Shown here: positions 12,909 to 31,521 of the stretch, piece by piece
Position numbering within the stretch: the first letter of the stretch is position 1
Layout of the letters: every line of letters begins with the position of its first letter
Assembly: GCA_030672305.1 (NCBI GenBank)
Contig: DAOVGR010000064.1
Location: 33,080-97,079, forward strand
DNA: 64,000 nt
Source: Thermoplasmatales archaeon
Lineage (GTDB): Archaea; Thermoplasmatota; E2; DHVEG-1
Direction: 5' to 3'
Notes under the pieces: generated by a model
Told to the model about the DNA's origin: nothing
The model's input: the letters and a program-made list of their open reading frames with translations, nothing else
Database searches by the model: none
Program-made: the position numbers and the translations under genes

Positions 12909-13004
12909 TGCCGTCAAAACAAACCATGATCAAGATCTGGCCATGCTGGAAATGACGGCAAAATAGCATGGTCCAGGATCTAGATCTATATCAAAATGAC
13001 GGCA
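12909..13004. repeat. Phased palindromic site B
   Basis: TGCCGTCA 12909, TGACGGCA 12953 and 12997 (44-bp steps); 46/52 identical to part of site D in reverse complement. Confidence 0.9.
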
Positions 13005-13089
13005 AAACACTATTTAGATATCATTATAAAAATTAATGTGAAGATATCTACCACGTGGGCCCAAGAATCAAATAATGATAGATTGAAGA

Positions 13090-13790: not shown

Positions 13791-13836
13791 GTAGGTTTTA
13801 AATATTTTAGATCTACTTCGATCTATGTTTTAGTAT

Positions 13837-14232: not shown

Positions 14233-14242
14233 TTATACCTCC

Positions 14243-14470
14243 TCAATTTCTTTTTATAAATTTTTTAAATTTTACAACATTAATCGCGTGTACTCCTCTA
14301 TGATCTTCAACCAAGTCAAAGACCACAGGATCATCTTTTTTAAGAAAAACAGGAATGTTAGATACATCTGATTTATGAAAGAAAATACCCACGGAGTCAC
14401 CATTTGAATCACTACTATTGATGAATCCGTATCCCTTTTGAAGATTAAATGATTTAATTATTCCATTCAT
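14243..14470 (-). CDS. Cold-shock domain (CspA-like) protein
   Basis: GIIKSFNLQKGYGFI (RNP-1) and IFFHKSD (RNP-2). Confidence 0.9.
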   Translation of the reverse strand: MNGIIKSFNLQKGYGFINSSDSNGDSVGIFFHKSDVSNIPVFLKKDDPVVFDLVEDHRGVHAINVVKFKKFIKRN

Positions 14471-14473
14471 GTT

Positions 14474-14815
14474 TTATATTCTCCTGAAAGAATTTGAAAT
14501 AGGATTAAAATTTACAACATAGACCTCTGGATTTGAAGAAGACGGATTTTTAGGGTTGATTTCATCCCATTTCCTAAAAAATTCCTCCCGGGTATAACCT
14601 CCCTCACACCAAGCATCCTTGTCAGAAATATCAAGTAAAAATTCTTTATGAACACTAATTATGAAGAGCTCTGCGAAAAACTCTTTAGAAAGCATCTTTG
14701 TTTTTGCTTTATGAATAGATCCAGGTTTACAACGTGGTTTTTTCCAGATACATCTAGTCTGGATTTTAAGGCCCTGTTGAATCAGTCCTATATGCTCAGG
14801 TTTAAACAAAATCAT
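14474..14815 (-). CDS. ASCH domain protein
   Basis: LFKPEH...GLKIQTR ASCH motif, DAWCEGG; 90/113 identical to 26321-26665. Confidence 0.85.
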   Translation of the reverse strand: MILFKPEHIGLIQQGLKIQTRCIWKKPRCKPGSIHKAKTKMLSKEFFAELFIISVHKEFLLDISDKDAWCEGGYTREEFFRKWDEINPKNPSSSNPEVYVVNFNPISNSFRRI

Positions 14816-14933
14816 TATTTCATATCCTTACAATTTCGTGGGTTTCCAACATTTACCATCAAATAAATAGGGGCACCCACAACAATTTTTACTCCCCTGA
14901 TAATCACTACAATCATTCATTTTTTCAGATCCA

Positions 14934-16916: not shown

Positions 16917-17041
16917 GGTGTGAGTCTCCGATGTCTTTCCTCCATACGATCAATTATGTTCTTCATCATTTGAATGTCTGATTCCATAGATGCTAGTTTA
17001 AGCCTCATTAGTTCCAAGTCGTTCAAAGTCTGTGTTTGCAT
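16913..17041 (-). CDS. Small coiled-coil protein
   Basis: Likely ATG at 17041 after GGAGGT; heptad pattern. Confidence 0.55.
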   Translation of the reverse strand: MQTQTLNDLELMRLKLASMESDIQMMKNIIDRMEERHRRLTP

Positions 17042-17045
17042 CCCA

Positions 17046-17288
17046 TCAACCTCCGTTTCTCCTTCTGTTTTCATCAGAAAATTTTCTATCTTTATGGATA
17101 TCCAAGATTTCTTCAATTCTAATACTTTTAAAACCGCCGTCTTTGTGTAATTTCAGTAAAATAGTTTCTTGAGTTACCTCTATTAACTCTCCAAAAAAGA
17201 AGTATGGTATTTCCCTAAAGCGATTTGGTACCCCGATACAAACAAAAAATCCAATAAAACTAACTAAATTCTGCCGTTGCATCCCCAA
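17046..17288 (-). CDS. Sm/LSm-like small protein
   Basis: FFGELIEVTQETILLK...IRIEEILDI fits an Sm-fold pattern; paralog at 24050-24286. Confidence 0.55.
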   Translation of the reverse strand: MGMQRQNLVSFIGFFVCIGVPNRFREIPYFFFGELIEVTQETILLKLHKDGGFKSIRIEEILDIHKDRKFSDENRRRNGG

Positions 17289-17564
17289 CTCGCCTCACTT
17301 TTTTTATCTTATTTTGTGTCTTTTTCATTTCCACTCACCATCATTTACATCTTATTTTTTTTAGGTGAGATCCCGATCCCTTCCACAAAATCAATTTTTT
17401 AACTCAGATATTTGTTGATTAATATTTTCTAATGCCTCTTTTACCGTCAGACCTGTTTCTTCGAACAATTCATTTGCGGTCCGATATTTGGTAAAATCCA
17501 TCATTGCTAAAAAGAGTTAACCGGAATTATATAATACTCTCTATTTTTTCAAAAAATATGGTTT

Positions 17565-17670
17565 TGCCGTCAAATTGAAGTTGATATCGACTGGATCCTG
17601 CGATGGTCCATGTTGTTTTGACGGCAAAAAGGTGTTCTGCAGGATCTCAACGTGCATCAAAATGACGGCA
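17565..17670 (+). repeat. Phased palindromic site A, just downstream of integrase 1
   Basis: TGCCGTCA 17565, TGACGGCA 17619 and 17663 (54 and 44 bp steps). Confidence 0.9.
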
Positions 17671-17716
17671 AAATAAATTCTAGTAAATTATCTCAAATTA
17701 ATAAAATTACAGAAAA

Positions 17717-18982
17717 TCATTTAGAATTCAACTTATTTTTGATTTTTTCTTGTTCTACTTGCATTTCCAATAATTTAAGCAAGTGTTCTTTTTGATTCAT
17801 CAAAAATTCCATTTTTCCCATCTTTTCCTGCAATTCTTTTATCTGTATATCTTTTTCATCAAGCCGTTTCGTCGTCTCTGTTGATGTATCAGATTCAAAG
17901 ATTAATAAACAACTGGCATGTGTATCATATTCAGTTTTCAATTTGGTCTCCATAACTTTATTCTCAAATTTATATATGTTATCTAAAAATGTAGTGTGAC
18001 CTCCCATGTAGTTTATGAATTCTTCATTTGTCCGGTCAAACATTAAATTTGTAAACCAGAAACGACGGATACTGTGAACATTATACATATATCTGGGGTA
18101 TTGTAATTTTGGATTGTTATCTTTTTTATTGTACGGGTGTCCTGCTTTTTCGAGTAGATTCTCCCACATTCTTCGAGCCGTAACATAATCAAAAGGAAAT
18201 ATCCTTTTTTCTAATTGAATAATTTCTTCTTTTGTAAGTTCCTCCCCATCTTTAGAAATAATCCAATTATTATAAACAATACCGTTTGATTCTGCAACCT
18301 TCTTCTTGGTTAAAGTATAACCCATTTTTTCAAATTGATTTCTTACAAATACACTGGTTTTATAGCGTTTCTGTAGCATCCGCTTTCTTTCAGGTATCCA
18401 AAGCTCTAATAGTTCTTTGGCTTCGGTTGTAAAAAAGGTATATCTTGGTATCTCAAATTTTGCTTTATCTGTTAGCATTACCTTTTTTTCGTTTAAATCA
18501 ATGTCATCAAATGTCAGGTTCAATGCTTCATCAATTCTTAGCCCTGTTGATGCTAATAATACAAATAAAGACCGTGATTTTACACCTGTAGCATAGCTTA
18601 AAATCTTTTTAAGGTCATTACCTGTCGGAGTTTCTTTCTTCGTCAAAGGTCTACTTCCTCCTTTTTTCAGGTTATTTCTGATTTGTAGATCTTCCCATGT
18701 TAACTCAGGTATATCGATTCTATTTCTTGTCAAGAACTTTTTTAGTATTGATAACATTGTTTTCTGGGTTTTCTTAGGTTTATCCTCTATCTTTTTAGCA
18801 TATTCAAATAAGAGGTTCTGTATTTCTTCTAGTGGTAGTTGTACTAATTCATCTGGTTCTTTTTTAATCCTTTCAAAAAAAGCTTTCAAATATACTCTTA
18901 CAGTATCTCGTGAATCTTTATTTTTGTAGTATTTCACAAGATATGATTCTATTATTTTTGGATGCCAATCATGGGTTCTCAT
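17717..18982 (-). CDS. Tyrosine recombinase/integrase of element 1
   Basis: STGLRIDE, HSIRRFW, MGGH and downstream Tyr; C-terminal coiled coil. Confidence 0.93.
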   Translation of the reverse strand: MRTHDWHPKIIESYLVKYYKNKDSRDTVRVYLKAFFERIKKEPDELVQLPLEEIQNLLFEYAKKIEDKPKKTQKTMLSILKKFLTRNRIDIPELTWEDLQIRNNLKKGGSRPLTKKETPTGNDLKKILSYATGVKSRSLFVLLASTGLRIDEALNLTFDDIDLNEKKVMLTDKAKFEIPRYTFFTTEAKELLELWIPERKRMLQKRYKTSVFVRNQFEKMGYTLTKKKVAESNGIVYNNWIISKDGEELTKEEIIQLEKRIFPFDYVTARRMWENLLEKAGHPYNKKDNNPKLQYPRYMYNVHSIRRFWFTNLMFDRTNEEFINYMGGHTTFLDNIYKFENKVMETKLKTEYDTHASCLLIFESDTSTETTKRLDEKDIQIKELQEKMGKMEFLMNQKEHLLKLLEMQVEQEKIKNKLNSK

Positions 18983-19029
18983 TTAATAATTCACCAATGC
19001 TGTAATGCACCCAAAGTTAAAATACTTTC

Positions 19030-19329
19030 TTATTGCTTACGCTTTCCAAATTCCTTTTTTCGTTCTTTTGATGTTAAACCTGTGGCTTCTAAAAGGAATT
19101 CATTCCATTTTTTTATGATACTTGGGTCGCCATATACTTTTTTAGGTGGTTCAATATCTATAGCAAGAAAGTTTTTATCCTGTTTCATATCAATTTTTCC
19201 AATACCTTCGACCTCAAATGTTAATCCTTCAAATATGTCTCCTTTTGTTCCAAAATATCTCTGAATTAATGAGTTGATATCTGCATTATGACCTTTCTTA
19301 ATCCTATATTCTCGCATGTACAATCCCAT
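19030..19329 (-). CDS. DUF5611-like conserved archaeal protein, integration target of element 1
   Basis: MREYRIKKGH...FLLEATGLTSKERKK; likely start ATG 19317. Confidence 0.65.
   Translation of the reverse strand: MGLYMREYRIKKGHNADINSLIQRYFGTKGDIFEGLTFEVEGIGKIDMKQDKNFLAIDIEPPKKVYGDPSIIKKWNEFLLEATGLTSKERKKEFGKRKQ
19046..19059. repeat. att core of element 1, integrase-proximal copy
   Basis: CCAAATTCCTTTTT within the last codons (KEFG) of the host gene. Confidence 0.85.
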
Positions 19330-19367
19330 CCAGACATCTAAATCCCAAATATTAAATTTTGGTTTTT

Positions 19368-19865
19368 CTATAACTCATAAGCTTTTTCAACTGCTTCTTC
19401 AGCAGAATTAGTAATATAATAATGAGATTCAATATCCTGCATTAAATTTCCGTTTATTATTTGATCAACACATCCCCCTGTACCTTTTATAAGGATAAGA
19501 GGTTTTTCAGAAACCATACTAAATGATATTTCATTTAGTGTTCCCCATCTACCACCGATAGCAATAACAGCATCACCTGCGTTTGCCACTAAATAATTTC
19601 TTATATTGCCGATATTTGTTGGAATTGCAATATCGATAAATTCATTAGCTTCATTTTTTATATTAGGTAATATACCAACAGTAATTCCATTTTCTTCTTT
19701 TGCACCTCTGCATGCTGCTTTCATCACACCTCCAAGTCCACCACAAACAAGAACACCGCCTCTATGAGCAATTAGTCTACCAACTTGCTCAGCTACTTCT
19801 AATGCATGTTGTGATAAATTATTATCATCAACATCACTTCCACAAATCGATATTACCTTTTTCAT
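19368..19865 (-). CDS. LOG/Rossmann-fold nucleotide-binding protein (TIGR00725-like)
   Basis: LVCGGLGGVM, GITVGILP, IGGRWGTLNEI. Confidence 0.9.
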   Translation of the reverse strand: MKKVISICGSDVDDNNLSQHALEVAEQVGRLIAHRGGVLVCGGLGGVMKAACRGAKEENGITVGILPNIKNEANEFIDIAIPTNIGNIRNYLVANAGDAVIAIGGRWGTLNEISFSMVSEKPLILIKGTGGCVDQIINGNLMQDIESHYYITNSAEEAVEKAYEL

Positions 19866-19965
19866 TGAAAGGCCTTAATTACAAATTGTTTTTAACCATT
19901 TCTCCCAAAAATATTATAAATACCCCATCCTTACACTACAATTCTCACATCTGGTGTTATGGTCT

Positions 19966-20331
19966 ATGGCAAAGAAATATACTAAGACAAATCCTGCTCT
20001 TACAGCATTAATTCACGAGCTGAAGAAGCAGGCAAATGAAAATGATGCACCTATTTGGAAAGATATAGCGTTAAGACTAGAGAAATCTTCGAAGAACTGG
20101 TCAGAGGTTAATCTTGATAGAATAGATAAGTATACAGGTGAAAAAGAAATAGCTCTTATACCAGGCAAGGTATTATCCAATGGAAATCTGTCTAAAAAAG
20201 TTTCAATTGCTGCTTGGTCATTTTCTGAGAAATCTCAAGAAAAAATTAAAAATGCTGGCGGCAAATATATGACAATTCAAGAACTTATTAAAAGCAATCC
20301 AAAAGGTAAAGATATTAGAATATTGGGTTAA
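19966..20331 (+). CDS. rpl18e: 50S ribosomal protein L18e
   Basis: KTNP...APIWKDIA...VNL...IPGKVL; likely start ATG 19966. Confidence 0.96.
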   Translation: MAKKYTKTNPALTALIHELKKQANENDAPIWKDIALRLEKSSKNWSEVNLDRIDKYTGEKEIALIPGKVLSNGNLSKKVSIAAWSFSEKSQEKIKNAGGKYMTIQELIKSNPKGKDIRILG

Positions 20332-20333
20332 TT

Positions 20334-20747
20334 ATGACAACTATTATTGATGCAAGTGGGGCAATACTTGGTAGACTCAGTACATTTACTGCTAAACGTT
20401 TGCTAAACGGAGAAGAAATTGCTGTAGTTAATTCTGAAAAAGCAATTATATCTGGTAAAAAATCATCAATTAAAAATCGCTATAAACAGAAAAGAGAAGT
20501 CGGGACATACCGTAAGGGACCATTTTATCCAAGGATGCCTGATATGATTGTAAAAAGGACAATTAGAGGTATGATTCCTTATCAAACACCTCATGGCAGA
20601 ACTGCCTTTAAAAGGTTGAAATGTTATATAGGTGTTCCAAAGGAATTTGAAGGGGGAAAATTTGAAAGTATTAAGGCAGCTGAAAAACAACCTATTGATT
20701 ATTTAACAATTAAAGAATTATCAAAATCATTAGGAGCAAAGATTTAA
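20334..20747 (+). CDS. rpl13: 50S ribosomal protein L13
   Basis: [12 protein letters not shown]...GPFYPRMPD...RGMIP. Confidence 0.97.
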
Positions 20748-21151
20748 TGGCTAAAAAGGTAATAAATACATCTGGAAAAAGAAAAACTGCTGTTGCAAGA
20801 GCAAACGTTCAAAAAGGAACTGGGCTTGTGAGAATTAACAGCAAACCTGTTGAGCTTTATGAGCCTGACATTGCTCGTTGGAAAATACTTGAGCCAATAA
20901 ATATCGCAAGTGATCATGTAAGTAAAGTAAACATTGATGTTAGTGTACAGGGAGGTGGTTTTATGAGTCAAGCAAATGCAGTTAGAACAGCTATTGCTAA
21001 AGGACTAGTAGAATTTACGGGGGACCCAAGTTTGAAAATTGCTTTTTTAGACCATGATAGAAGCTTACTTGTAAGTGATTCAAGAAGAAAAGAACCGAAA
21101 AAGCCTCTTGGACGTGGTGCAAGAAAAAAGAGGCAGAAGTCATATAGGTAA
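20747..21151 (+). CDS. rps9: 30S ribosomal protein S9
   Basis: [11 protein letters not shown]...GGGFMSQA...[11 protein letters not shown]. Confidence 0.98.
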
Positions 21152-21201
21152 GTAAATAACTTACTGCGAAATCATTAAATATTCCAATTGTATTCTACTT
21201 T

Positions 21202-22323
21202 TTGATAATTATGGATCCAATTGAGGAATTTTTAAAAAATAAAGGTAAGGTTACTCAAAAAAACTATAGGTGGGTTTTAAAACAATATTTCGATGATATT
21301 AAACAAGATCCAGAGGTTTATTTTCAAAGTAATAGGAATTTTAAAGATGATATTCAAAACTGGTGGAACATTCATAAAAGCGAAGTTCCAAAGACCAGGA
21401 ATACAAAACTTGCAATACTCAGAGGACTCTTTGAAGAATACTCAAAGATAATTAGTGATTTACCACCTAAGTATTTTAAGAAACTTAGAAAACAGCAAAA
21501 AGGATCCAAAAAAGCAACAACTGATCATATTTTGAAAAAAAATGAATTTAAAAAAATATTGGCACATGGAACTATCAAAGACCGCGCTTTTTTTCTTTTT
21601 TTAATAAGTTCAGGTTGCAGAGTTGGTGAAGTTTTACAATTAAAACTTACAGATGGATTTGTTAAACGATTGGAGAACAATCCACCACAAATAGAGATAT
21701 CTGGAAAATTCACTAAAACTGGAAATCCAAGAACTGTGTTTATCACACCAGAATCAAAGGAAAACCTTGAAGAATGGCTGAAAATCAGAAATGATTATAT
21801 TAGAACAGCAGTCAAAAAATGCAACAAAGAAAAAGGTGGAATATGCACAAAAGATCCAAATGATGATCGGGTGTTTCCATTCAGTTATGATGTTGCTTGG
21901 ACTTCCTGGAATAGGTTAGTAAAAAAAACTGGTCTTGGTGAAAGAGATGAAACAACCAATAATTACAAACTGCATATTCATTGTTTAAGAAAATTCTTTT
22001 TAAGTAAGTTGAAACTTGAAATTCCTGAAGTTGTTGCAGAGATACTTGCAGGTCATGAAGGATACTTGCAGGGAACATATGATAAATACTCATTAGAAAC
22101 ACAAGCAGAATTATACAAGAAGGGAATGAAACATCTTACTATCTTTGATACAACTTCAAGAGAACTTGAGGAGACAAACGAAGAAGTAAATAAGCTTAAA
22201 TATCAAATCGATAACAAGGACAAACAAATCAATGAAATGCAGGATATGATGCAAGAGATGAAAGCACAGATCCTGGAGCTTAGACTTGAGAAACTTGAAA
22301 AGATTAATGGATTAAAAAAGTGA
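21202..22323 (+). CDS. Tyrosine recombinase/integrase of element 2
   Basis: SSGCRVGE, KTG, HCLRKFF, LAGH...TY; likely start ATG 21211. Confidence 0.94.
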   Translation: MIIMDPIEEFLKNKGKVTQKNYRWVLKQYFDDIKQDPEVYFQSNRNFKDDIQNWWNIHKSEVPKTRNTKLAILRGLFEEYSKIISDLPPKYFKKLRKQQKGSKKATTDHILKKNEFKKILAHGTIKDRAFFLFLISSGCRVGEVLQLKLTDGFVKRLENNPPQIEISGKFTKTGNPRTVFITPESKENLEEWLKIRNDYIRTAVKKCNKEKGGICTKDPNDDRVFPFSYDVAWTSWNRLVKKTGLGERDETTNNYKLHIHCLRKFFLSKLKLEIPEVVAEILAGHEGYLQGTYDKYSLETQAELYKKGMKHLTIFDTTSRELEETNEEVNKLKYQIDNKDKQINEMQDMMQEMKAQILELRLEKLEKINGLKK

Positions 22324-22440
22324 TATCATTTCCAGCTGACCTGTTGGCCATTTTTGATATCATTTTTGCTGTGATATCGTCTGGATCCGGTGCTATTGTG
22401 ATATCAAAACAATGATCAGCTGGATCTACAAATGATATCA
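22321..22440 (+). repeat. Phased palindromic site E, overlapping the integrase stop codon
   Basis: TGATATCA at 22321, 22355, 22399, 22433 (34/44/34 steps); 22355-22440 is 64/86 identical to site F in reverse complement. Confidence 0.9.
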
Positions 22441-22458
22441 TTGGTTGATTTTAAATCC

Positions 22459-23562
22459 CTAATAATTATTCTGTAAACTATAGTTATCGCTATAAATATG
22501 AAATTTTGAATAAGCAATCTCTATTGGAATTGCAAGTTTTATAAACTCTTTATTGTCCCATCCCCACTGTATCAATTCCTTAATTTCACCTAATGATAAA
22601 TCATAATCTTTATAAAAAAAAGATTTACTCCAAATTCTACAAAATTCTTCAAGATATGAATCAACAGATTTCTTATCTTTTAAATTAAATAGTTTATTCA
22701 TAGCATCAGAAATATTTTTTCTAATTCTTATTTCTTGATTAATGTTAATTTCTTTTTTTAGAGGATAACCAAAAACAAAAAAGAATAAAGTTTTTGATGT
22801 ACAAATATCAGCACCCTCATATAAGTTTAAAGCAATATAATTAAAAAAAATACCATATAAATGATCCTTAATTTCACTTAATATATTTTTTATTTTACTG
22901 CTTTTAGTGTTTCTTTGTAAAATATCTATAAGCTTGTCTCGTTCTTCAAAAAATCTTTTTTCCTTAATTTTATATATTTCATCCAGAAATATATCAATTT
23001 TCTTTAAATTATTCATTACCAAATTTCGATCATTCTGATTAAAAATATTCTTAAATAAATCATCTGATAATCCATAAATTATATGTTTTTCTAAATCATC
23101 TTTGCCTTGAAAAGCTTTTATTTTGTCTGATGGAAAAAAATCAATAGATTCTTTATTCTGATTTTTTAAACTCTCTTTATATGCAATATCATTTATAAAG
23201 TATTTAACTCCTTTATCATGGCCCTTACCATGTCCCTTTTTATGTATTAAATCTAGATCTTCTTCTCCCAATAGCTTTAGATAATATTTTAATTGTCCCC
23301 GATTCTTAATAATCCCTCTTTTAATAACATTATTTTTTTCTAATGACTCTAATCTTTTTCCAAAAAAGGTTTTCATTCGCGTTATATTCCGTTTCAATTC
23401 TGGATCATCTTTTATTTGTTTATTTGATGCATATTCAATTTGAAGTGCATATCTGATAAATCTAGGTGGTAATCCTTCTTCTTTGTATATACTCAAAAGA
23501 TTAAGGATACTTTTTGTAATTTTATTTTCAAATGCATCTTCAAATGTAATTGCTTTTTTTAT
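22459..23562 (-). CDS. Hypothetical protein, possible N-terminal winged helix, transcribed divergently from the core operon
   Basis: Track ORF extends in frame to a probable ATA start at 23562 behind AAGGAG. Confidence 0.6.
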   Translation of the reverse strand: MKKAITFEDAFENKITKSILNLLSIYKEEGLPPRFIRYALQIEYASNKQIKDDPELKRNITRMKTFFGKRLESLEKNNVIKRGIIKNRGQLKYYLKLLGEEDLDLIHKKGHGKGHDKGVKYFINDIAYKESLKNQNKESIDFFPSDKIKAFQGKDDLEKHIIYGLSDDLFKNIFNQNDRNLVMNNLKKIDIFLDEIYKIKEKRFFEERDKLIDILQRNTKSSKIKNILSEIKDHLYGIFFNYIALNLYEGADICTSKTLFFFVFGYPLKKEININQEIRIRKNISDAMNKLFNLKDKKSVDSYLEEFCRIWSKSFFYKDYDLSLGEIKELIQWGWDNKEFIKLAIPIEIAYSKFHIYSDNYSLQNNY

Positions 23563-23653
23563 GGTTATCTCTCCTTAGTTGTGGAATTTTAAATGATACA
23601 AATCACACAAATGATATAAAATAATCATTATTTAATCTTAGTGGAACTTATTT

Positions 23654-23806
23654 ATGAAAAATGATAAAATAACATCAATAGCGCTCAGTAAAAACGAACA
23701 AAATCTTATCGATTCCTATAGGAAGAAATATGGGTTGTCTAGATCTGCATGTATTCGCTTAATTCTGAATGATTTTTTTATTAAAAATCAGGGAGTAACA
23801 CAATGA
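23654..23806 (+). CDS. RHH-like small regulator (not in track)
   Basis: ITSIALSKNEQNLIDSYRKKYGLSRSACIRLIL. Confidence 0.7.
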   Translation: MKNDKITSIALSKNEQNLIDSYRKKYGLSRSACIRLILNDFFIKNQGVTQ

Positions 23807-23952
23807 TCTCTAATGAACTTCTTGATAAATATCCAAGAGTTCGTAAGTTTCTAAGAAAACACCCGGAGATGAATCTAGATTCAGCATTAGTTTATACAGA
23901 AAATAAACTTAAGGAATCAAGTAAAGCCGATTCCCCTATTTTGAGAAGATAA
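23803..23952 (+). CDS. Small hypothetical protein (not in track)
   Basis: 49 aa, ATGA-coupled to the upstream gene, GGGAG SD. Confidence 0.55.
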   Translation: MISNELLDKYPRVRKFLRKHPEMNLDSALVYTENKLKESSKADSPILRR

Positions 23953-24049
23953 ACCACTCTTCTCAAAGTAGATCTTAAATATAATTTCAGTAGGAGGAAG
24001 TCAAATTGATGGGATATAATAAGATAAATAAGGTGAGGAGAGGTCTAGG

Positions 24050-24286
24050 ATGCACCAAAAAGATCTAATTCCTTTTAATGGTTTATTTGTTGCTATTGGG
24101 ATCTCATGTTATTCTAGAACAGCGCCTTTCTTTTTTTATGGAGAATTATTAGAAATTAATGAAGCAAATATTCTTCTAAAGTTGGATAAAAATTCAGGAT
24201 TAAAATCCATAAGAATCGCAGAAATTGTTGATATCCATTTGGATCCGAAATACAATAACATAAACAGGAGGAAAAACAGGCATTGA
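24050..24286 (+). CDS. Sm/LSm-like small protein
   Basis: FYGELLEINEANILLK...IRIAEIVDI; paralog of 17046-17288. Confidence 0.55.
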   Translation: MHQKDLIPFNGLFVAIGISCYSRTAPFFFYGELLEINEANILLKLDKNSGLKSIRIAEIVDIHLDPKYNNINRRKNRH

Positions 24287-24531
24287 TCATATTTATTATT
24301 ACTCAAAGTGAAAGTGATTTTTCCGATATTTACAATTCTATTGGTGCTGTTCGCAATAAACTTAAAATTACAAAAGCTTGTGAGTTAACATTGAAATCTC
24401 CAGTTACAAAAAAGAAGATAAAAAAAACGGTAAAACTAGTTGGTATATTGTATAAAATAATTGACGGTGAAATGGATACAATTTTTAGAACAACTCAAAG
24501 ATTGGAGAATCGACACCGAGGGAAACAATGA
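24283..24531 (+). CDS. Hypothetical protein
   Basis: Overlap-coupled on both sides. Confidence 0.55.
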   Translation: MIIFIITQSESDFSDIYNSIGAVRNKLKITKACELTLKSPVTKKKIKKTVKLVGILYKIIDGEMDTIFRTTQRLENRHRGKQ

Positions 24532-25901
24532 CTTATCAAGTCTCAGAACCTGTAAAAAATGACAAAGGAGAATTATGTTGGTTAATTGATAAGGGAAATA
24601 AACCAGTATCTACAGTTTCAAAAGATAAATCGATAAAACAGATAATAAAACAGAATAATCCAATCGATTACAAACAAGTATTTGAATTAAAACCAGAAGG
24701 ATTATGGCAATGTCGAAAATGTGGAGCGCAAATGCAAAGCAGTCCAAATCCACCTTTAGAATGTTACAAAGAACAAGGTGGTTGTGATAGATCTACAAAT
24801 TTTGAAATAGTAACAAAAACAATAAATACTGATTTATGGAAATTACCAAATTGGAATGACATCCCACTAGATGATATAGATATTCAAGGATTATTTGTAG
24901 ATATAAAAAACTTGATGAAACAATGCTTGATTTTTGTAGAAGATATACACTATACAATACTTACATTATGGATTATAAGCACATGGAAATTAGAATCATG
25001 GAATACTGTAGGTTTCCCAACATTTTTAGGAATGGTAAGCAGTGGTAAATCAAAATGCCTAGACTTCATAAATGAAATAGGATACCGAATGATAAACAGT
25101 AGTGGAATAACATTTCCAGCAATAGTAAGAGCATCGCACTATCATAATGCTGGAATATTAATGGATGAAGTCCAAAATAGATTAAATCCTAAAGATGAAT
25201 CAGGACGAGAATATATTAATTTCATAAAACCAAGTTATAGACGTGGAAATAAATATACAGTAGCTGACAAAGAAGATCAAGAAAACCTACTTAGTTATAG
25301 AAATTTTGGATTCAAAGCATTTGCAGGTGAAAGAGGTTTTGATCTAGGTTTAATGGATCGAACAATACTTTTTGAAATGGAACAGGATTACCCAGAGGTT
25401 ACTAATTTTAAAGAAATAGAAACAGATTTTGACATTATGAGAACACGATTGCTAAATTATAGATATAAAACACAAGAACCAGAATCATTGGATACTAGGA
25501 TATTTAAAAACAGTAGAACACATGAAATATTTGAAAGTATAATAGCAACAGGAAAACACATAGGAACAGTTACAGATGATATAATTGATTATGCAAAAAA
25601 ATGTGAAATTGAAAAAGAGGAAGAATTACAAGATACAATTGAATGGAATATATTAGAAATAATTAAAAATAAGGAATGCAACGAAACATTAGACGATGCA
25701 CCAACAGAAACACAGTATGGGGATATAGTAACAGCATTAGGATGGGAACCTGGAAGAAAAAGCTCACAATCATTAGGATATATTATTACAAAAAAATTCA
25801 GACTAATAACTAAAAGAAAAACAAGTGGGACTGTTATCCTTTTGACCAATCCTAAAAACGAAAGGAAGTTAAAATATCTTTTTAAGAGGTATAAATTATG
25901 A
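24528..25901 (+). CDS. Putative replication protein: Zn finger, P-loop NTPase, C-terminal HTH-like region
   Basis: CRKC...CYKEQGGC; GMVSSGKS Walker A; ILMDE Walker B. Confidence 0.65.
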   Translation: MTYQVSEPVKNDKGELCWLIDKGNKPVSTVSKDKSIKQIIKQNNPIDYKQVFELKPEGLWQCRKCGAQMQSSPNPPLECYKEQGGCDRSTNFEIVTKTINTDLWKLPNWNDIPLDDIDIQGLFVDIKNLMKQCLIFVEDIHYTILTLWIISTWKLESWNTVGFPTFLGMVSSGKSKCLDFINEIGYRMINSSGITFPAIVRASHYHNAGILMDEVQNRLNPKDESGREYINFIKPSYRRGNKYTVADKEDQENLLSYRNFGFKAFAGERGFDLGLMDRTILFEMEQDYPEVTNFKEIETDFDIMRTRLLNYRYKTQEPESLDTRIFKNSRTHEIFESIIATGKHIGTVTDDIIDYAKKCEIEKEEELQDTIEWNILEIIKNKECNETLDDAPTETQYGDIVTALGWEPGRKSSQSLGYIITKKFRLITKRKTSGTVILLTNPKNERKLKYLFKRYKL

Positions 25902-25904
25902 ATT

Positions 25905-26152
25905 ATGAATACTTCTATGAATACTTTATGAATACTTTTATGAATACTTTTCTCCGAGAAATGAATACTATGTATACTTTGAGTGTAAATATACCCTTTT
26001 TTATTAAAATAAATAGGTTGTATACAACTATATTACTTATTATAATAGACAGACGTGAGTGTGTGTGTATTGTCATAAAGTATTCATTGTATTCATTAAC
26101 AGATATGAAGTATTCATGGAAGTATTCATTAACTATCCATTTGACTATTCAT
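25905..26152. repeat. Convergent 10-bp iterons flanking an AT-rich spacer, putative origin of element 2
   Basis: ATGAATACTT at 25905, 25917, 25928, 25940 (variants 25961, 25970); AAGTATTCAT at 26078, 26108, 26120 (variants 26087, 26143). Confidence 0.75.
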
Positions 26153-26169
26153 TTTTTGGAGATTGTTGA

Positions 26170-26319
26170 ATGATCTCTGCAAGTACAAAAATTCAACTAT
26201 TGAAAAACAGGATATCTAGACTTGAAAATGAGATTCATAAGAGACAGATTGAAATTGATAATTGTAAGGAGCAACTTGAACGTTTAGATAATAGAATAAA
26301 TTCAGAGGTGAAAGTCTAA
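26170..26319 (+). CDS. Small coiled-coil protein (not in track)
   Basis: 49 aa, heptad pattern; its end carries the GAGGTGA SD for the ASCH gene. Confidence 0.55.
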   Translation: MISASTKIQLLKNRISRLENEIHKRQIEIDNCKEQLERLDNRINSEVKV

Positions 26320-26320
26320 A

Positions 26321-26665
26321 TTGCTTCTTTTCAAACCTGAGCATATAAAACTGATTCAACAAGGTCTTAAAACTCAGACTAGACGTATCTGGAAAAAACC
26401 TCATTGTAAACCTGGATCTGTTCATAAAGCTAAGACTATGATGCTTTCAAAGGATTATTATGCTGAGCTTTTCATAATCAGTATTCATAAAGAACATTTG
26501 CTTGATATTTCAGATAAGGATGCTTGGTGTGAAGGAGGTTACACCCGGGAGGAATTTCTAAACAAATGGGATGATATCAATCCTAGATTTCCTTCTTCTA
26601 CAAATCCAGAGGTCTATGTTGTGCCTTTTAATCCTATTGTGAAATCTTTCAGGATTTTAGATTAA
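26321..26665 (+). CDS. ASCH domain protein
   Basis: GLKTQTRR ASCH motif; TTG start. Confidence 0.87.
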   Translation: MLLFKPEHIKLIQQGLKTQTRRIWKKPHCKPGSVHKAKTMMLSKDYYAELFIISIHKEHLLDISDKDAWCEGGYTREEFLNKWDDINPRFPSSTNPEVYVVPFNPIVKSFRILD

Positions 26666-26699
26666 CTATAATTAAATTTTACATTATTTTACATGAATT

Positions 26700-27720
26700 T
26701 GACGTTAGTATACTATTTTTTTCTAGGAGTAGTTGACAGTATTGTAATGTTTTGATGGTGCTGTGTCCACCTAGGGATGGGGATATATAATATATTGTAT
26801 AGATTTATTGATTCTCTAATCTTCTAATATCTTACTTTATTAGGTGTATAGAATAGATTCTTTTAGTATCCTATAGGTTATATCTAAAGAAAGTTAAAGC
26901 TGTTTAAAGTTGGTATACTGAAATCTCTAAGAAGAAACTTAAAGTAATGCAATGTATCAAAAGTTCACTGTCCACCATAGAGAGAGATATCATTATAGTA
27001 TATTGATTAATTGATCTCTAATCTTCTATCTATAAAAAACATGGGACTTCATACAGTTATGTTAGAGATCTTCATTCACATTTTCTTCAAGAAAATGAAT
27101 GACTTGTATGTATGTCTTAGAAATGTTTCACCTAGGGATGGGTATAATTTATTATTATTGATTTATTGATCTCTAATCTTCTATCTATAAAATTCATGAT
27201 AAGTTATCAGTATGTATGTAATAGTCATGGAGAATTTCTTCAGGAAAATCAATAATTAATAACTAACTAATCTATTATGTTTTACCTAGGGATGGGGATA
27301 TATAATATTGTTATTGATTTATACTCTAGTCTTATGATAATTGATGGTAATTGATATTGTGGTTATAGCTGGTATACTGATTTTTCCTAGGAAAAATTGA
27401 CAATATTGTACTATTTTGATATTATGGTGTCCCACCTTCGAGAGAGATATCATTATAGTATATTGATTTATATAATCTCTAACTTTGTTATGCAATGTTA
27501 CAAGGATGTTATAGAAATATTTTAAAAATTTCTAGAGAAGATGTTGTATAACCCATTCAATGTTATATGCAATGTCCACCATAGAGAGAGATATCATTAT
27601 AGTATATTGATTAATTGATCTCTAATCTTCTAACTAACTAACTATATATGTTTCACCTAGAGATAGAGTATAATTTATTATTATTGATTTATTGAATCTC
27701 AAATCTTCTAGATGATAAGG
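26700..27720 (+). repeat. Non-coding tandem array of element 2, seven units
   Basis: CTCTAAT-type anchors at 26814, 27016, 27171, 27324, 27477, 27620, 27698; each ~45 bp after a CCACC/TCACC/TACC motif. Confidence 0.92.
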
Positions 27721-27841
27721 TAGATATCGTCACTAGTGACGATTTAAGAGTCTAGGTAATATTCCATAGATTTTTTTTTAAAGGTTGATTATCATCCATG
27801 GATCCAATCGGTTTTTGTATTTGTTTTTCTTATTATAGAAA

Positions 27842-27980
27842 TGCCGTCAAAAAAGAAGATATCAAAAAATGGTCCAGTAAATAATGACGGCAAAATTGAG
27901 TTCGAACCAGCTGGACCTGATCTAGTTTTGCCGTCATTTCCTGGATGGCCCGATCTTGATCATGTATAGTTTTGACGGCA
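27842..27980. repeat. Phased palindromic site D
   Basis: TGCCGTCA 27842, TGACGGCA 27885, TGCCGTCA 27929, TGACGGCA 27973 (43/44/44 steps). Confidence 0.9.
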
Positions 27981-28035
27981 ATATTTAAGATTAAAAGAGA
28001 ATGAATAAATTTTATATTACAGATTTAAAAGGAAT

Positions 28036-28890
28036 TTAGTATGGAGTACTAGGATGTGGAATTACTCCGATAACATATAAAATTGAAAGGATGACTGCAA
28101 TGAGAACAATGATAGTTTTTTCATGATCTGAAATTCTATGACTGAATTCTCCAATCTTTTCTTTAAAAGTTTTAGTTTTTAAGACTCCATTTGTACCTAT
28201 AAATTCATTAAATAATTTCATATTTTCTTTAAGGATTTTACCAAGTAAAATATAATCAATACTATCCGTTTTAAAGCATTCACTTATTTTATAATACACA
28301 TTATTGACATCATTATTGTTGCAATAGATATTTAAATTTTCAAGAAAAACTACAAGATCATAAAGGGTTTTATAAATGAATTTTGCTCTATGATATCTAT
28401 AATCAGTATAGGACCTTATTGATGATGGATTAAGTCTTTTTTGAGGTGCATTAAAACAATAAAGGAGTCTTGATAAATTATAATAAATATGCATTAAAAT
28501 TTCATATTTTCTATTTTCATCAGGTTCTTTAGATAACTCTTTAAAAAACTGATTAATTATGATATATTCATTATATTTGTTATAGCGTATATACAACCTT
28601 TCATAGATTATAACACAGAGTGAAATAATTAATAAAATAAAACCAGAATAGATAAATCCAACAGTGACAATGATCATCAATAATAATTCAATTAAATTAT
28701 CAACTATTAAATTTCCAGAACCAAATAAAAAAAGGAAAAACACACCCAATACTAAAAAAACACTGGACAAGATAATAAGTCGCATTCCCCAAATATCTAG
28801 TTTTATGATTCTATTACCTATTTTTTCATAATTTTGGATCGTGATTTCTTCAGAATTTTTAGAAATTTTTTTTTGATTTGTTTTTTTCAA
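28036..28890 (-). CDS. Hypothetical membrane protein (cargo)
   Basis: Two N-terminal and one C-terminal TM helices; TTG start after GGGGGA. Confidence 0.7.
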   Translation of the reverse strand: MKKTNQKKISKNSEEITIQNYEKIGNRIIKLDIWGMRLIILSSVFLVLGVFFLFLFGSGNLIVDNLIELLLMIIVTVGFIYSGFILLIISLCVIIYERLYIRYNKYNEYIIINQFFKELSKEPDENRKYEILMHIYYNLSRLLYCFNAPQKRLNPSSIRSYTDYRYHRAKFIYKTLYDLVVFLENLNIYCNNNDVNNVYYKISECFKTDSIDYILLGKILKENMKLFNEFIGTNGVLKTKTFKEKIGEFSHRISDHEKTIIVLIAVILSILYVIGVIPHPSTPY

Positions 28891-29310: not shown

Positions 29311-29393
29311 ATCCTAGTATTATTACTGTTATAGTTCTGTCTTTTTTTGGTGAGGTGGGGTGGAAATATTAATTTCATTGGAGTTGTAGAAAG

Positions 29394-31016
29394 ATGAAGA
29401 GATTATTGATAATTGGTGTAATTATAGCTGTTTTCATACTCATAGGAAGTCTATTCTATACAGGTATAATCCCAGGGCTTGGAGTCCTGGATAACGATAC
29501 CAATACAATATCAAAAACCCATATATGCATCAAAGGAAATGGAAGAAGTGAACTACTGGATAAAAAAGGATACATCCTGAGTTATAAAAATGATGAATTC
29601 AGTGAAAAAATAAGCATCATAGGTCAACTGCAAAAAACTGGTTCTGATTGTGCTCATTGTGGTTTTTTGTATGAAAAAGTAAGATATCTTGTTTATCTGA
29701 AACTGGATTCTTCGCATGAGTATGAACTTATGAGTTCACCAGGAGATACAAAGAGATATTTTAGTAATCCTAACCCTGGTGAGATGTATAAACCTGCTCT
29801 TGGATGCTGGAAGGACAATGCAGGGAACCCCAGAGATGATGGATATCAAAGACCTTATGATTTTTACTTGGTTGGAAATGATTATTCAAATGGCGCAATC
29901 AAAGCGGTAATCCAATGTAAACTAGACTTGAGCATGTGGGATGATAAAGGTTCAAAATGGTACACCATGGCCATTGATGAAGCATTCCTATACAGCGGAT
30001 ATGGTGGACTACATCTCCCCAGGGGACTTGAAGATGAACTAGATAAACCATATAGCACATTTGAAGTAGGACAAACAGTCAAAATAGGAGTAGAAACCGC
30101 AAAAGGTGGACAAACCGGAGATAACCAAAACTGGCGCGTAACACTCAATAAACCCTATTCTGGAAACATTGACAGTCCTGAAGATGGAACAGTGGTGGTT
30201 TCTCAGAATTTCCCGGATGATTGTGATCCTAGTAATACATTTTTTGAATTTACTGTTACTGATGAAATGGCCAGGCAATCAATGAGTAATTCTTATCCGT
30301 ATACTGTTAGGATTTGGAATACACTTCTCCCCAAGGGTTCACTTCAGATTGATTTTGTTGATTTTGTTGCTGGTTGTCCCAGTGATGTTGATTTTGTAGG
30401 ATCAATAAAGGTCAAAGTTGGTGAAACTACAACTGTTGATCTTTCTGCAACTGTAAGCAGTGGATCCAGTGCAAGTATTGATTATTTCAGAGTTGCAGTG
30501 ATCTATGGAACCAATGATGCATTGCTTCCAGGGGATCATAGCAGTAGTCTTTGGATTATTCATACAACACCAGTTGGAAATGATGATAGCAAAGCATGTG
30601 GTGTTCCACAGACTATCCAGTTTAAAGCAGATAGGGAAGAATTTGTAACTGTTCATGCAAAAGCATTTGATACTGATGGAAGGGGATCTAAAACAACCCG
30701 GACATTTACAATGAAGATATGGGGTGAATCTGGTGAACCACCAGATGAAACCATTGCAGATGAAACAGGTGATGCTGATTATGGTGGTGGACATACAAGT
30801 GGATGGCATCCTTGGGATCCCAGTGAAGGAACCTGGGAACAAGGACTCCCAATAAAAATTGATACAACAGGAGTTATCATTGCTATAGTTATCCTGGCTA
30901 TTTTTGCATTGATTGCCTTACTTATTCCTAATCTGAATCAATATATCCGGTTCGCAATCATACTTGTTGGAGTTGCAATTGCAATCATCCAATATCTATT
31001 ATTCTTCATATCCTGA
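29394..31016 (+). CDS. 540-aa membrane-anchored surface protein
   Basis: N-terminal signal/anchor, beta-rich ectodomain with 8 Cys, acidic Gly-rich linker, two C-terminal TM helices. Confidence 0.75.
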   Translation: MKRLLIIGVIIAVFILIGSLFYTGIIPGLGVLDNDTNTISKTHICIKGNGRSELLDKKGYILSYKNDEFSEKISIIGQLQKTGSDCAHCGFLYEKVRYLVYLKLDSSHEYELMSSPGDTKRYFSNPNPGEMYKPALGCWKDNAGNPRDDGYQRPYDFYLVGNDYSNGAIKAVIQCKLDLSMWDDKGSKWYTMAIDEAFLYSGYGGLHLPRGLEDELDKPYSTFEVGQTVKIGVETAKGGQTGDNQNWRVTLNKPYSGNIDSPEDGTVVVSQNFPDDCDPSNTFFEFTVTDEMARQSMSNSYPYTVRIWNTLLPKGSLQIDFVDFVAGCPSDVDFVGSIKVKVGETTTVDLSATVSSGSSASIDYFRVAVIYGTNDALLPGDHSSSLWIIHTTPVGNDDSKACGVPQTIQFKADREEFVTVHAKAFDTDGRGSKTTRTFTMKIWGESGEPPDETIADETGDADYGGGHTSGWHPWDPSEGTWEQGLPIKIDTTGVIIAIVILAIFALIALLIPNLNQYIRFAIILVGVAIAIIQYLLFFIS

Positions 31017-31122
31017 AATATTTAGACTTGCCAAAATATCTAGAAGAAGGGCTAATGGCAAGAGGTTAAACTATTCACCTTCATAATAGCCCTCTTCTCT
31101 CCTTAAAAAAAGAGGTAAAAAA

Positions 31123-31521
31123 ATGAATCTAACAGATCTAACTGATTTATGCTGTGGAATCACTTTTCCAATAATTGGAATAGTTGTTACAGTGTTTTTG
31201 CTGTATCTTAGAAAGAAAGGATATTCTTTCAATCTTAGAAGTCTATGGGATGATGATGATGCTGTAATGGTTATTTCCAGAGCTTTTGCAATTGGCGTTC
31301 CATTGATCCTGGTAACAATTTTTCATACTGCTAATGCTTTTGGGATTGGAATATGGGAACCACTTCTCAGTATAGCATTAGCATCAGCAATTATAATTTC
31401 TGGTGCTGTTATCGCTGTTCTTGGTCTAAAAGTAGGTTTTTATTATCCGATGATGCTGATTTTCATCATCTGGGTTCTATTGATCTATGTTTATCTTCAA
31501 TTTGAAGCTAACATAATATAA
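31123..31521 (+). CDS. Small four-TM membrane protein
   Basis: Hydrophobicity pattern; AGAGGT SD. Confidence 0.75.
   Translation: MNLTDLTDLCCGITFPIIGIVVTVFLLYLRKKGYSFNLRSLWDDDDAVMVISRAFAIGVPLILVTIFHTANAFGIGIWEPLLSIALASAIIISGAVIAVLGLKVGFYYPMMLIFIIWVLLIYVYLQFEANII

Follow-up and report, generated by a model that had tools for sequence, protein, structure and literature searches.

Non-coding module arrays in two related mobile elements of an archaeon: possible operator-gated small RNA units

The closest described systems to the locus analyzed in this work are of different kinds. LhrC1-5 of Listeria represent tandem "sibling" small RNAs of bacteria; iteron clusters of plasmids are found at origins and at auxiliary inc loci (P1 incA, F incC); some plasmid centromeres are arrays whose units, placed in tandem, contain an inverted repeat, for example F sopC (12 x 43 bp) and the omega/ParG-type heptad arrays; and the SSV1 F55 sites are tandem operator repeats of 10-11 bp in archaeal virus promoters.

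The locus compared with them lies in a window of 64,000 nucleotides (the whole stretch of DNA analyzed) from an uncultured, low-GC Thermoplasmatales archaeon (assembly GCA_030672305.1, contig DAOVGR010000064.1, positions 33,080 to 97,079). The host genes of this window are heterotrophic in type. Two related mobile elements of this archaeon, E1 and E2, were confirmed to carry each a real and rare array of non-coding modules. The array is indeed non-coding and common to both elements, as an earlier note made from the DNA sequence had proposed, and it is also harbored by two further metagenomic elements (L035 and L116), the only ones with related arrays besides E1 and E2. Samples containing such related elements are ERZ27247725, SRR9617867, and SRR12235900.

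In E2, the array (26666-27720, plus strand, like all the E2 positions that follow) embeds seven modules and extends from the stop codon (26665) of the gene encoding an ASCH-domain protein (26321-26665; Pfam E-value of 3.5e-4, at the cut-off) to a site of TGACGGCA boxes. It includes seven blocks of ~60 nt, all in one orientation, between positions 26768 and 27715. The seven units of the earlier note were found again, while its steps (202, 155, 153, 153, 143, and 78) were re-measured, start to start, as 205, 156, 154, 150, 144, and 77; the subtype order given there, X-Y-X-X-Y-Y-X, was correct. Block 1 (26768-26829) is of the X type, CACC-TAGGGATGGGGAT...ATTCTCTAATCTTCTA, and block 2 (26973-27034; 91.9 bits) of the Y type, CACCA-TAGAGAGAGATATCA...TGATCTCTAATCTTCTA. 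They are followed by block 3 (X, 27129-27190), block 4 (X, 27283-27344; 15.3 bits), whose 3' arm is the most diverged, block 5 (Y, 27433-27494), block 6 (Y, 27577-27638), sharing 97% identity with block 2, and block 7 (X, 27654-27715), which lies 15 nt behind block 6 and is preceded by TAACTAACTAA, a three-frame stop also present ahead of blocks in E1 and L116. The arms TAG(R)GA...TCTCTA previously pointed out were retrieved, those of the X type requiring G-U pairs on the ASCH-sense strand; the CCACC/TCACC motif holds in E2 but not as a universal motif, since elsewhere TACC, CAAC, or AACC occurs.

Four of the E2 inter-blocks are of an iteron type. That of unit 1 (26666-26767) harbors two copies of ATTTTACAT plus ATTTGACGT (26676-26705), a GTATACT box (26708), a T7 run (26716-26722), and a fourth word, AGTTGACAGT, at ~26731. 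In unit 2 (26880-26972), the word (N)TTAAAG is present three times (26884-26909), with a fourth copy at ~26939 and a GTATACTGA box at 26912-26920. Unit 5 (27345-27432) has the same box, two copies of TAATTGAT (27338-27355), a fourth word, AAATTGACAAT, and the palindrome ATTTTTCCTAGGAAAAAT (27380-27397), and unit 6 (27495-27576) has the word (G)ATGTTRT at ~27494, 27505, 27540, and 27560. The inter-blocks of units 3 (27035-27128) and 4 (27191-27282) are of a non-iteron type (type C); the former contains the dyad CATTTTC-TTCAA-GAAAATG (27079-27097) and TATGTATGT, and the latter ends with the three-frame stop TAACTAACTAA and shares ~84% identity with the inter-block of E1 unit 2. Both dyads reported in the earlier note, this one and ATTTTTCCTAGGAAAAAT, do exist. 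Downstream of the array, four TGACGGCA/TGCCGTCA boxes are located at 27840-27980, and the 3' 55 bp of this site share 89% identity with the E1 counterpart.

The E1 array (13080-13836, minus strand) comprises four modules, in agreement with the four units originally counted, in the order X-X-Y-Y; the blocks, lying within 13084-13717, occupy 13656-13717 (X), 13494-13555 (X), 13268-13329 (Y), and 13084-13145 (Y), with starts at 13717, 13555, 13329, and 13145, respectively. On the same strand, the words of units 3 and 4 are ATCTTGCAT and TTTCTT, and the counterpart of the TGACGGCA-box site is found 3' of the array (12905-13010). Phased box sites, either TGACGGCA or TGATATCA, follow the arrays downstream.

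A 26-nt core pattern of the block gave 5 matches in the window vs. 0.00 expected from 100 shuffles, and in the whole 2.8-Mb genome the core was found in these two arrays alone. A MITE or another dispersed repeat was ruled out, the block-model matches in the own genome being confined to the two arrays. No block was retrieved from the 108 family genomes and the 197 class genomes searched, and scanning viral and genome collections for the exact pattern returned single chance matches only. Anchoring the search on ASCH homologues led to L035 (with its copy L036), L116, and a degenerate array in L033; anchoring on Rep, spike-like, DUF2080, and 251-aa proteins did not yield any new block-bearing element, Rep recovering only L052, a copy of the L035 array. 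The number of modules is one (degenerate) in L033, two in L116, and four, four, and seven in the others, and all 17 blocks of the four elements point in the same direction as their neighboring genes. The array accounts for ~10% of an element of roughly 10 kb. Moreover, an identical stretch of 22 nt is common to the Y blocks of elements that have just 49% identity in their Rep proteins. E1 and E2 have an identical 37-nt core, which suggests a recent exchange between them.

According to the earlier note, the region between the blocks should be a variable part; it does not vary freely, however, since nine inter-blocks represent one homologous scaffold of ~105 nt with repeated words private to each unit. 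The scaffold embeds a word of 8-10 nt in three tandem copies (with a period of 10-11 bp) plus one or two distal ones, a GTATAC box, and a T5-7 run. In the nine units the words are spaced by 10, 11, 34-35, and 19 bp, so that they lie roughly on one helix face, as helix-phased direct repeats do in an iteron-type origin or inc locus. The words are TCTTGCAT, TGTTGCAT, ATTTGGA, TTTTACAT, AATTGAT, TTAAAG, ATGTTRT, and TTTCTT, and a whole-genome search revealed each of them to be private to its own unit. Between the paralogous units U2 and U3 of L035, all four word copies differ by an identical C/G change.

Furthermore, the scaffold resembles the iteron, T-run, and GGAG region that lies past rep, immediately 5' of the following operon, and the GGAG leader remnant is retained in just two or three of the nine units. 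In E2, where Rep is encoded at 24528-25901, the iteron region 3' of rep (25900-26135, plus strand) consists of five direct copies of ATGAATACTT, an AT-rich portion with GTATAC palindromes, and four inverted copies of AAGTATTCAT; the same grammar trails rep in nine related elements. The rep-proximal words of these nine elements are RTGAAYRCTT, and no array word is the same. The arrays share with P1 incA and F incC the short helix-phased direct repeats, a nearby rep with its own iteron field, the concerted repeat change, and AT-rich DNA with interspersed palindromes; they differ from them in that the words are not the rep-adjacent ones, that each unit has a different word, that the units are 150-230 bp long with a conserved 60-bp dyad block, and that binding is putative. 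The three tandem ~10-nt words and the concerted change between copies of a promoter- or leader-like module also recall the SSV1 F55 sites, but the array module leads to a non-coding block and not to a protein gene. A protein-binding or promoter array, given in the earlier note as an alternative, is a good fit to these inter-block parts.

Other readings of the inter-blocks were discarded. If the words were decoys imitating the origin iterons of other family members, they should match them, but none of the nine rep-proximal sets did. A CRISPR-like array, expected to have near-identical repeats of 23-50 nt and unique spacers that are unrelated and match invaders, is at odds with ~60-nt repeats of two subtypes and with inter-blocks that are homologous both mutually and across elements. 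Host targeting by spacer-like sequences was also rejected: all the inter-blocks, probed by blastn-short against the 2.8-Mb genome, retrieved outside the arrays only chance matches of 14-19 nt (one of 20 nt).

As for the blocks, there is moderate evidence that they act as RNA. In an alignment fitted to the hairpin model, 84.4% of the pair cells are standard vs. 77.8 +/- 1.9 in the shuffles (2 of 500), even if these counts are inflated by the fitting of paralogues to the model and the column composition alone (a purine arm opposite a pyrimidine arm) gives 78% pairing; the covariation score of the same fitted alignment is 0.397 vs. 0.276 (0 of 500 shuffles), and slid controls reach 41-59% of paired cells. 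The strand asymmetry of the hairpin, with G-U pairs on the sense strand, was borne out (84% vs. 72% paired): the opposite strand, with a mirror-image model fitted to it, has only 71.9% of paired cells, and the G-U and A-C cells number 28 and 4, respectively, in sense, as against 4 and 27 in the opposite orientation. Summed over 15 blocks, the fold energy is -157 kcal/mol in sense vs. -119 in antisense. Compensatory-looking changes are found in the outer stem of L116 (AUAGA/UCUAU to AAAGA/UCUUU) and in unit 4 of both E1 and L035, where a 5'-arm GAGUG is paired with a 3'-arm ...ACU....

A significant structure was not supported by three other analyses: RNAalifold on the MAFFT alignment returned no consensus structure, the fold energies are no better than those of dinucleotide shuffles (z from -2.7 to +1.3, mostly near 0), and swapping the arms gave no advantage to the cognate ones (-8.71 vs. 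-8.56 kcal/mol, p = 0.36). The best-conserved part is represented by the loop and the 3' arm, which is a conservation of sequence, and the first block of L116 has lost its hairpin potential. An Rfam cmscan of positions 12300-28100 on both strands (E <= 5) retrieved no family but one sub-threshold snR75 match, outside the arrays. C/D-box, BHB, and K-turn readings were dropped upon inspection by eye, the defining boxes being absent.

From this genome, 1528 upstream regions served to train a BRE/TATA matrix, which did not reveal any promoter above the AT-rich background at a constant spacing from the start of the block (p = 0.26) or from the 3' arm (p = 0.97), and no canonical archaeal promoter per unit was found either 5' of the block or inside it. 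Promoter-like sites are present at the array heads of E1 (13808, minus strand; 10.2), E2 (26665; 6.4), and L035 (7286; 6.7). In L035, a GC-rich hairpin with a T-run starts no more than about 10 nt 3' of the block in three cases out of four; both are absent 3' of the E2 blocks.

Both elements also encode a protein for which an Sm/Hfq-like fold is predicted, as the earlier note had proposed. It is 78 aa long in E2 (24050-24286, plus strand), with a homologue in E1 (17046-17288, minus strand); its AF2 model (pLDDT 89, topology H-E-E-E-E-E) has the N-terminal helix and the five-stranded bent beta-sheet of this fold, and the best PDB matches in Foldseek are mostly Hfq/Lsm chains (TM <= 0.79 by target, E ~1e-2). 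The likeness to LhrC1-5 consists of several paralogous units of ~60-110 nt arranged head to tail, a conserved CU-rich stretch that could pair with purine-rich mRNA sites, the hairpin and U-run after the L035 units, and the predicted Hfq/Sm-type protein on the same replicon. Unlike LhrC1-5, the array consists of putative RNA units, belongs to a mobile element of an archaeal host, lacks a canonical promoter per unit, has a private upstream word set in each of them, and contains blocks whose fold stability does not exceed that of the shuffles.

The explanation that we tentatively put forward, with a confidence falling somewhat short of even, is that the modules are operator-gated small sense RNA units. 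Each module would serve the mobile element as a small and self-contained unit of control, made up of two parts. The inter-block would act at the DNA level as an iteron- or operator-like docking site for a protein, copying the grammar of the iteron region 3' of rep; the block of ~60 nt would give the product, a short non-coding RNA of the sense strand starting near CACC and folding as an AU-rich hairpin, with a purine-rich 5' arm (GAGAGAGA or GGGAUGGGG) over a near-invariant CU-rich 3' arm (AUCUCUAAUCUUCUA). As a whole, the array would correspond to a set of "sibling" small RNAs, each separately addressed and possibly served by the Sm/Hfq-like protein of the element. What we observe is the module anatomy, with its concerted word changes, strand asymmetry, conservation, and rarity; we infer the binding of proteins to the words, the transcription of the blocks, and any function of the RNAs. 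A bolder version, which we regard as very improbable, is an address-coded system, where the private word, written four or five times at fixed positions, is read by something that its own unit specifies: one candidate would be an RNA starting 5' of the block, carrying the promoter-proximal word copies and directing a protein common to the units to the triplet of its own word. If true, the mobile element would possess several non-coding units that can be switched independently, with no need for a DNA-binding protein dedicated to each word.

Only slightly less probable than the operator-gated units is a purely DNA-level array, in which words and blocks would be protein-docking sites of the maintenance machinery with no RNA product. 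It might serve as an additional cluster of iterons (in the control of copy number, in incompatibility, or in handcuffing), as a site resembling a centromere, or as a set of auxiliary origins, with the blocks as AT-rich unwinding or second-factor sites. The phasing of the words on the helix, their privacy genome-wide, the change shared by the four copies in L035, and the recurrence of phased words, GTATAC palindrome, and AT-rich DNA in the region trailing rep in nine elements are all consistent with this possibility, as are the phased box sites 3' of the arrays, the absence of a canonical promoter per unit, and fold energies no higher than those of shuffles. However, the array words are unlike the rep-proximal iterons in every element examined, which excludes a simple titration of one Rep; there are at least eight different words vs. 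few candidate DNA-binding proteins per element, and no reader protein co-varying with the words was identified. A 50-aa RHH-like protein is encoded at 23654-23806. The arm G-T asymmetry and the terminator-like hairpins after the L035 blocks, moreover, would have no role. Concerning a centromere, the arrays resemble sopC and the omega/ParG-type sites in being tandem and non-coding, with a dyad per unit, and in three elements (L033, L035, and L116) the gene directly 5' of the array codes for a long coiled-coil protein (251 aa in L035), putatively DNA-binding, whose C-terminal domain is winged-helix-like (the best matches in the PDB are all wHTH regulators, with weak E-values). Yet this gene is missing from E1 and E2, Pfam scans of 25 element proteins did not reveal any ParA/ParB-type family, and the array units are much longer and heterogeneous, with two block types and two inter-block types.

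It is unlikely, in our opinion, that the modules are decaying duplicates, i.e., non-functional relics of a repeated duplication of the rep-proximal iteron and leader region, kept similar by gene conversion between co-resident elements. The varying copy number, the scarcity of the GGAG remnant, the identical 37-nt core of E1 and E2, and the near-identity of E2 blocks 2 and 6 would agree with such a decay. Nevertheless, the blocks are conserved across elements from different samples with proteins ~50% identical, the array fills ~10% of the element, and the copies of a word, located at four or five fixed positions, change together, a pattern that drift does not generate.

The model put forward in the earlier note appears decidedly improbable. 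It assumed a polycistronic transcript of the ASCH operon yielding unit-length small RNAs, whose UCACC/CCACC motif would mask ribosome-binding sites, and which the ASCH, Sm-like, and cold-shock proteins would handle. The G-U pairing on the sense strand, the predicted Sm/Hfq-like fold, and a CSD protein encoded by E1 are in line with it, and the conserved GGTG-repeat that all four elements have 3' of their DUF2080 gene might in principle base-pair with CACC. On the other hand, the T7 run ~50 nt past the ASCH stop and the T5-7 run inside each iteron-type unit do not support a single transcript. The functional link with ASCH is not maintained either: the E1 copy (14474-14815, minus strand), 80% identical to that of E2, is separated from the array by other genes, as in L035 and L116, and close homologues (70-75% identity) occur in L038, L041, L044, and L048, all without an array; Sm-like genes, too, are present in array-free elements. 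The proposed masking relies on a motif of 4-5 nt that is not invariant, CAAC, AACC, or TACC replacing the 4-nt CACC in 7 out of 17 blocks, and its variants do not co-vary with the GGTG-repeat.

Finally, that the array encodes micro-proteins is hardly credible: a 57-aa ORF (13566-13739, minus strand) does span E1 block 1, the inter-blocks of E2 unit 4 and E1 unit 2 share a frame for ~20 codons (a peptide-like SYQxVCxxHGEFLQ), and TAACTAACTAA stops all three frames, but paralogous units and X vs. Y blocks are in different frames, a stop inside the E2 block breaks the matching frame, the shared stretch shows ~2 synonymous vs. 8 non-synonymous differences, and the Y-block frames differ between the window and L035, so that small ORFs, whose frames are not conserved from unit to unit or from element to element, were ruled out as a general explanation, in accordance with the earlier statement that no consistent ones exist.

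If the blocks are RNAs, as in the operator-gated small RNA units that we tentatively favor, the arrays would represent an archaeal family of tandem small RNAs carried by mobile elements, encoded beside a predicted Sm/Hfq-like protein of the same element; to our knowledge, the post-transcriptional control exerted by plasmids and viruses of archaea has hardly been explored. If the array works at the DNA level, its interest would lie in a different word per unit on the same scaffold, with copies changing in concert, and the question would be how an element of ~10 kb reads so many specificities. Either way, this strongly conserved locus, about a tenth of the element, represents a clean and small experimental target.

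The repeated array that the earlier note had read in both mobile elements is real. In element 2 (E2) it consists of seven copies of a ~60-nt block on the plus strand (starting at positions 26768, 26973, 27129, 27283, 27433, 27577, and 27654), and in element 1 (E1) of four copies on the minus strand (starting at 13717, 13555, 13329, and 13145); a 26-nt core pattern has five matches in the window, versus 0.00 expected from shuffles, and a search of the 2.8-Mb assembly located the block in these two arrays alone. Two subtypes, X (CACC-TAGGGATGGGGAT...) and Y (CACCA-TAGAGAGAGATATCA...), have the 3' half ATTGATTWATTGATCTCTAATCTTCTA in common; they are arranged as X-Y-X-X-Y-Y-X in E2, exactly as had been proposed, and as X-X-Y-Y in E1. 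Both short dyads quoted in that note are also present (27079–27097 and 27380–27397).

Four independent elements were found to carry arrays: E1, E2, and two metagenomic elements, L035 (four units, X-X-Y-Y; L036 and L052 are identical copies of it in further samples) and L116 (two units). A further homologous locus, L033, has one degenerate block left. Neither a sequence profile nor the two covariance models used retrieved any block from the other Rep/ASCH homologue loci, and none was detected in any other genome of two sets, 108 for the family and 197 for the class (own genome included); exact-pattern scans of viral and genome collections gave single chance matches only, and Rfam contains no match to the arrays. 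The host genome has 31.9% G+C, an archaeal BRE/TATA consensus, and an archaeal-type rpL18e-rpL13-rpS9 context. A search for AmoA gave no match in it, nor in the control genomes. E2 and L035 share, in different samples, an integration site directly 3' of these three genes (window 19954–22323; L035 110–2414), with the integrase gene adjoining rpS9.

The sequence between blocks, previously described as a variable part, does not vary freely: nine inter-blocks (E2 units 1, 2, 5, and 6, E1 units 3 and 4, and L035 units 2, 3, and 4) can be aligned with one another over ~105 nt. Their scaffold starts with three tandem copies of an 8–10-nt word at a 10–11-bp period, followed by a GTATACTGA box, a run of 5–7 T, CTWGRAG, another word copy (the fourth), AT-rich sequence, a less exact fifth copy, and TGTRTATCC, up to the ACC of the block. 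Each word is private to its unit (TTTTACAT / TTGACRT in E2-U1, TTAAAG in E2-U2, AATTGAT in E2-U5, ATGTTRT in E2-U6, TTTCTT in E1-U4, TGTTGCAT in L035-U3, and ATTTGGA in L035-U4), except for TCTTGCAT, common to E1-U3 and L035-U2. For most words no tandem pair occurs elsewhere in the host genome, the low-complexity TTAAAG and TTTCTT having a few; moreover, an identical C/G change separates all four aligned word copies of L035-U2 from those of its paralogue L035-U3.

Inter-blocks of a second kind, which lack words, lie in front of units 3 and 4 of E2 and units 1 and 2 of E1, and one also separates the two blocks of L116. They contain TATGTATGT and a short hairpin with arms that are not the same in E2 as in E1, with the three-frame stop TAACTAACTAA placed 10–20 nt 5' of the block. 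A 57-aa ORF (window 13566–13739, minus strand) crosses E1 block 1, and its C-terminal part, SYQSVCDIHGEFLQNN, shares its frame with SYQYVCNSHGEFLQEN of E2 unit 4 (27191–27260, plus strand); this likeness probably reflects conservation of the DNA, because the frames break in other units.

The word-bearing parts resemble DNA sites at which proteins dock: their words are helix-phased and vary together, and the elements have a GTATAC palindrome at other places too. The same grammar is found directly 3' of rep in nine family members, after the stop codon (window 25900–26135; L035 5745–5990; L033, L051, L053–L056, and L059): four to five direct copies of RTGAAYRCTT are followed by the palindrome TTCTCGAGAA, AT-rich DNA with GTATAC, and four copies of the inverted word, and then by a T-run, GGAG, and the next gene with its Shine–Dalgarno (SD) sequence. 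The word of this iteron field differs by element (ATGAATAC, GTGAATGC, and ATGAACAC; GTCGGCACAA in a relative of higher GC content). The 85–93-aa ORF that gene callers place over the field is probably spurious. Furthermore, in L033, L035, and L116 the gene immediately 5' of the array, between it and ASCH (L033 6347–7120; L035 6345–7100; L116 1124–1918), codes for a 251–264-aa protein with an N-terminal helical part, a coiled coil of ~110 residues, and a C-terminal domain whose top structural matches, although with weak E-values, are all winged-helix DNA-binding regulators; two TGTATACA palindromes lie 3' of this gene. The protein may serve as the reader of the array, and its gene is absent from E1 and E2. 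The array might act purely at the DNA level, in copy control, in handcuffing, or as a centromere-like site, a possibility that we consider nearly as likely as the reading favored below; no partition-type genes were found. The array words are in the style of the rep words, many of them ending in CAT, and none equals a rep-proximal word in the nine elements sampled, so that neither a simple titration of Rep nor the mimicry of a relative's origin is supported.

Phased TGACGGCA boxes (TGATATCA in L116) lie 3' of each array, and 3' of them is the strong promoter of the DUF2080 gene, with TAGACTA dyads (matrix score 12.6). A 42-aa ORF (MPSKKKISKNGPVNNDGK..., window 27841–27969, plus strand) overlaps the boxes and at its N-terminus almost matches a 40-aa gene called after ASCH in the array-less L038 (6345–6467); its frame is not conserved in E1 and L035. 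The conserved feature of this site may be the boxes, the peptide, or both. Just 3' of the DUF2080 gene, E1, E2, L033, and L035 keep a T6-7 run and then a GGTG repeat (GGTGAGGTGGGGTGG, GGTGTGGTGTGGTGAGG; window 29345–29362, plus strand, and 12577–12600, minus strand; L033 ~7908–7925; L035 ~8788–8805), ~35 nt 5' of the next gene's own SD. A 540-aa protein (window 29394–31521), with an anchor at the N-terminus and TM helices toward the C-terminus, has homologues in L033 and L035 (34–35% identity); neither Pfam nor the viral collection gave a match to it. It is possibly located at the surface or in the virion, and a 132-aa multi-TM protein is encoded next.

Close ASCH homologues (70–75% identity) occur in a different, array-less type of element with downstream resolvase and integrase, and other genes separate ASCH from the array in E1, L035, and L116; the array therefore tracks the DUF2080/box-site side rather than ASCH, to which it had been linked. 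The ASCH assignment itself is at the Pfam cut-off. One array-less ASCH/resolvase element carries a RelA/SpoT-domain gene (L044 1601–2704). A protein of 78–80 aa is encoded just upstream of the rep operon (window 24050–24286, plus strand; E1 17046–17288, minus strand; also L033). The confident models (pLDDT 89) of the 78-aa E2 protein and of its homologues show an N-terminal helix and a five-stranded bent sheet, and Hfq and Lsm chains make up most of their best PDB matches, which supports an Sm/Hfq-like fold in the model, from which we infer RNA binding. Array-less elements encode small beta-rich proteins in the corresponding position, perhaps also of this kind, so this protein would not be array-specific. 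A cold-shock protein is present in E1 only.

A BRE/TATA matrix trained on 1528 upstream regions of the own genome (consensus RAAAnATTTAWATA) recovers the DUF2080 promoters; measured from either the block start or the 3' arm, no site at a constant distance exceeds the AT-rich background, and each array has a single promoter-like site, at its head. A T7 run (26716–26722) and the T5-7 run of every word-bearing unit speak against a single long transcript. The specific version first advanced, a polycistronic, ASCH-linked RNA pairing with ribosome-binding sites via CACC, is mostly unsupported.

The block as RNA was analyzed with a covariance model built from eight Y blocks (14-pair hairpin) and used to align 13 blocks. 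Standard pairs occupy 84.4% of pair cells versus 77.8 ± 1.9 with shuffled partners (reached by 2 of 500 shuffles), counts that are inflated by fitted alignments and paralogue relatedness, the 78% arising from composition alone because a purine-rich arm faces a pyrimidine-rich one. Two-sided changes affect seven pairs, and the covariation score is 0.397 versus 0.276 in shuffles (0/500 reach it). Pairing falls to 41–59% when partner columns are slid, and a mirror-image model of the opposite strand, identically fitted, gives 71.9%. The sense strand has 28 G-U and 4 A-C cells and the antisense strand 4 and 27, and the summed MFE of 15 blocks is −157 and −119 kcal/mol, respectively. Changes that look compensatory include AUAGA/UCUAU to AAAGA/UCUUU in L116 and the co-occurrence of GAGUG with an ACU-containing 3' arm in both E1-U4 and L035-U4; a GC-rich hairpin with a T-run lies 3' of three of the four L035 blocks. 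RNAalifold predicted no structure from the unfitted block alignment, block fold energies are at the dinucleotide-shuffle level, cognate arms pair no better than arms exchanged between blocks (p = 0.36), and the first L116 block has no hairpin.

The locus is real, rare, strongly conserved, and non-coding, with a modular grammar, and each module, as read from sequence, is a private-word iteron/operator-like part joined to a conserved hairpin-prone block. Our tentative preference, held at somewhat less than even probability, is that the word part would be a DNA-level switch and the block a short sense RNA, whose purine arm would cover the conserved CU-rich arm; the array would then represent a set of sibling small RNAs of a mobile element.
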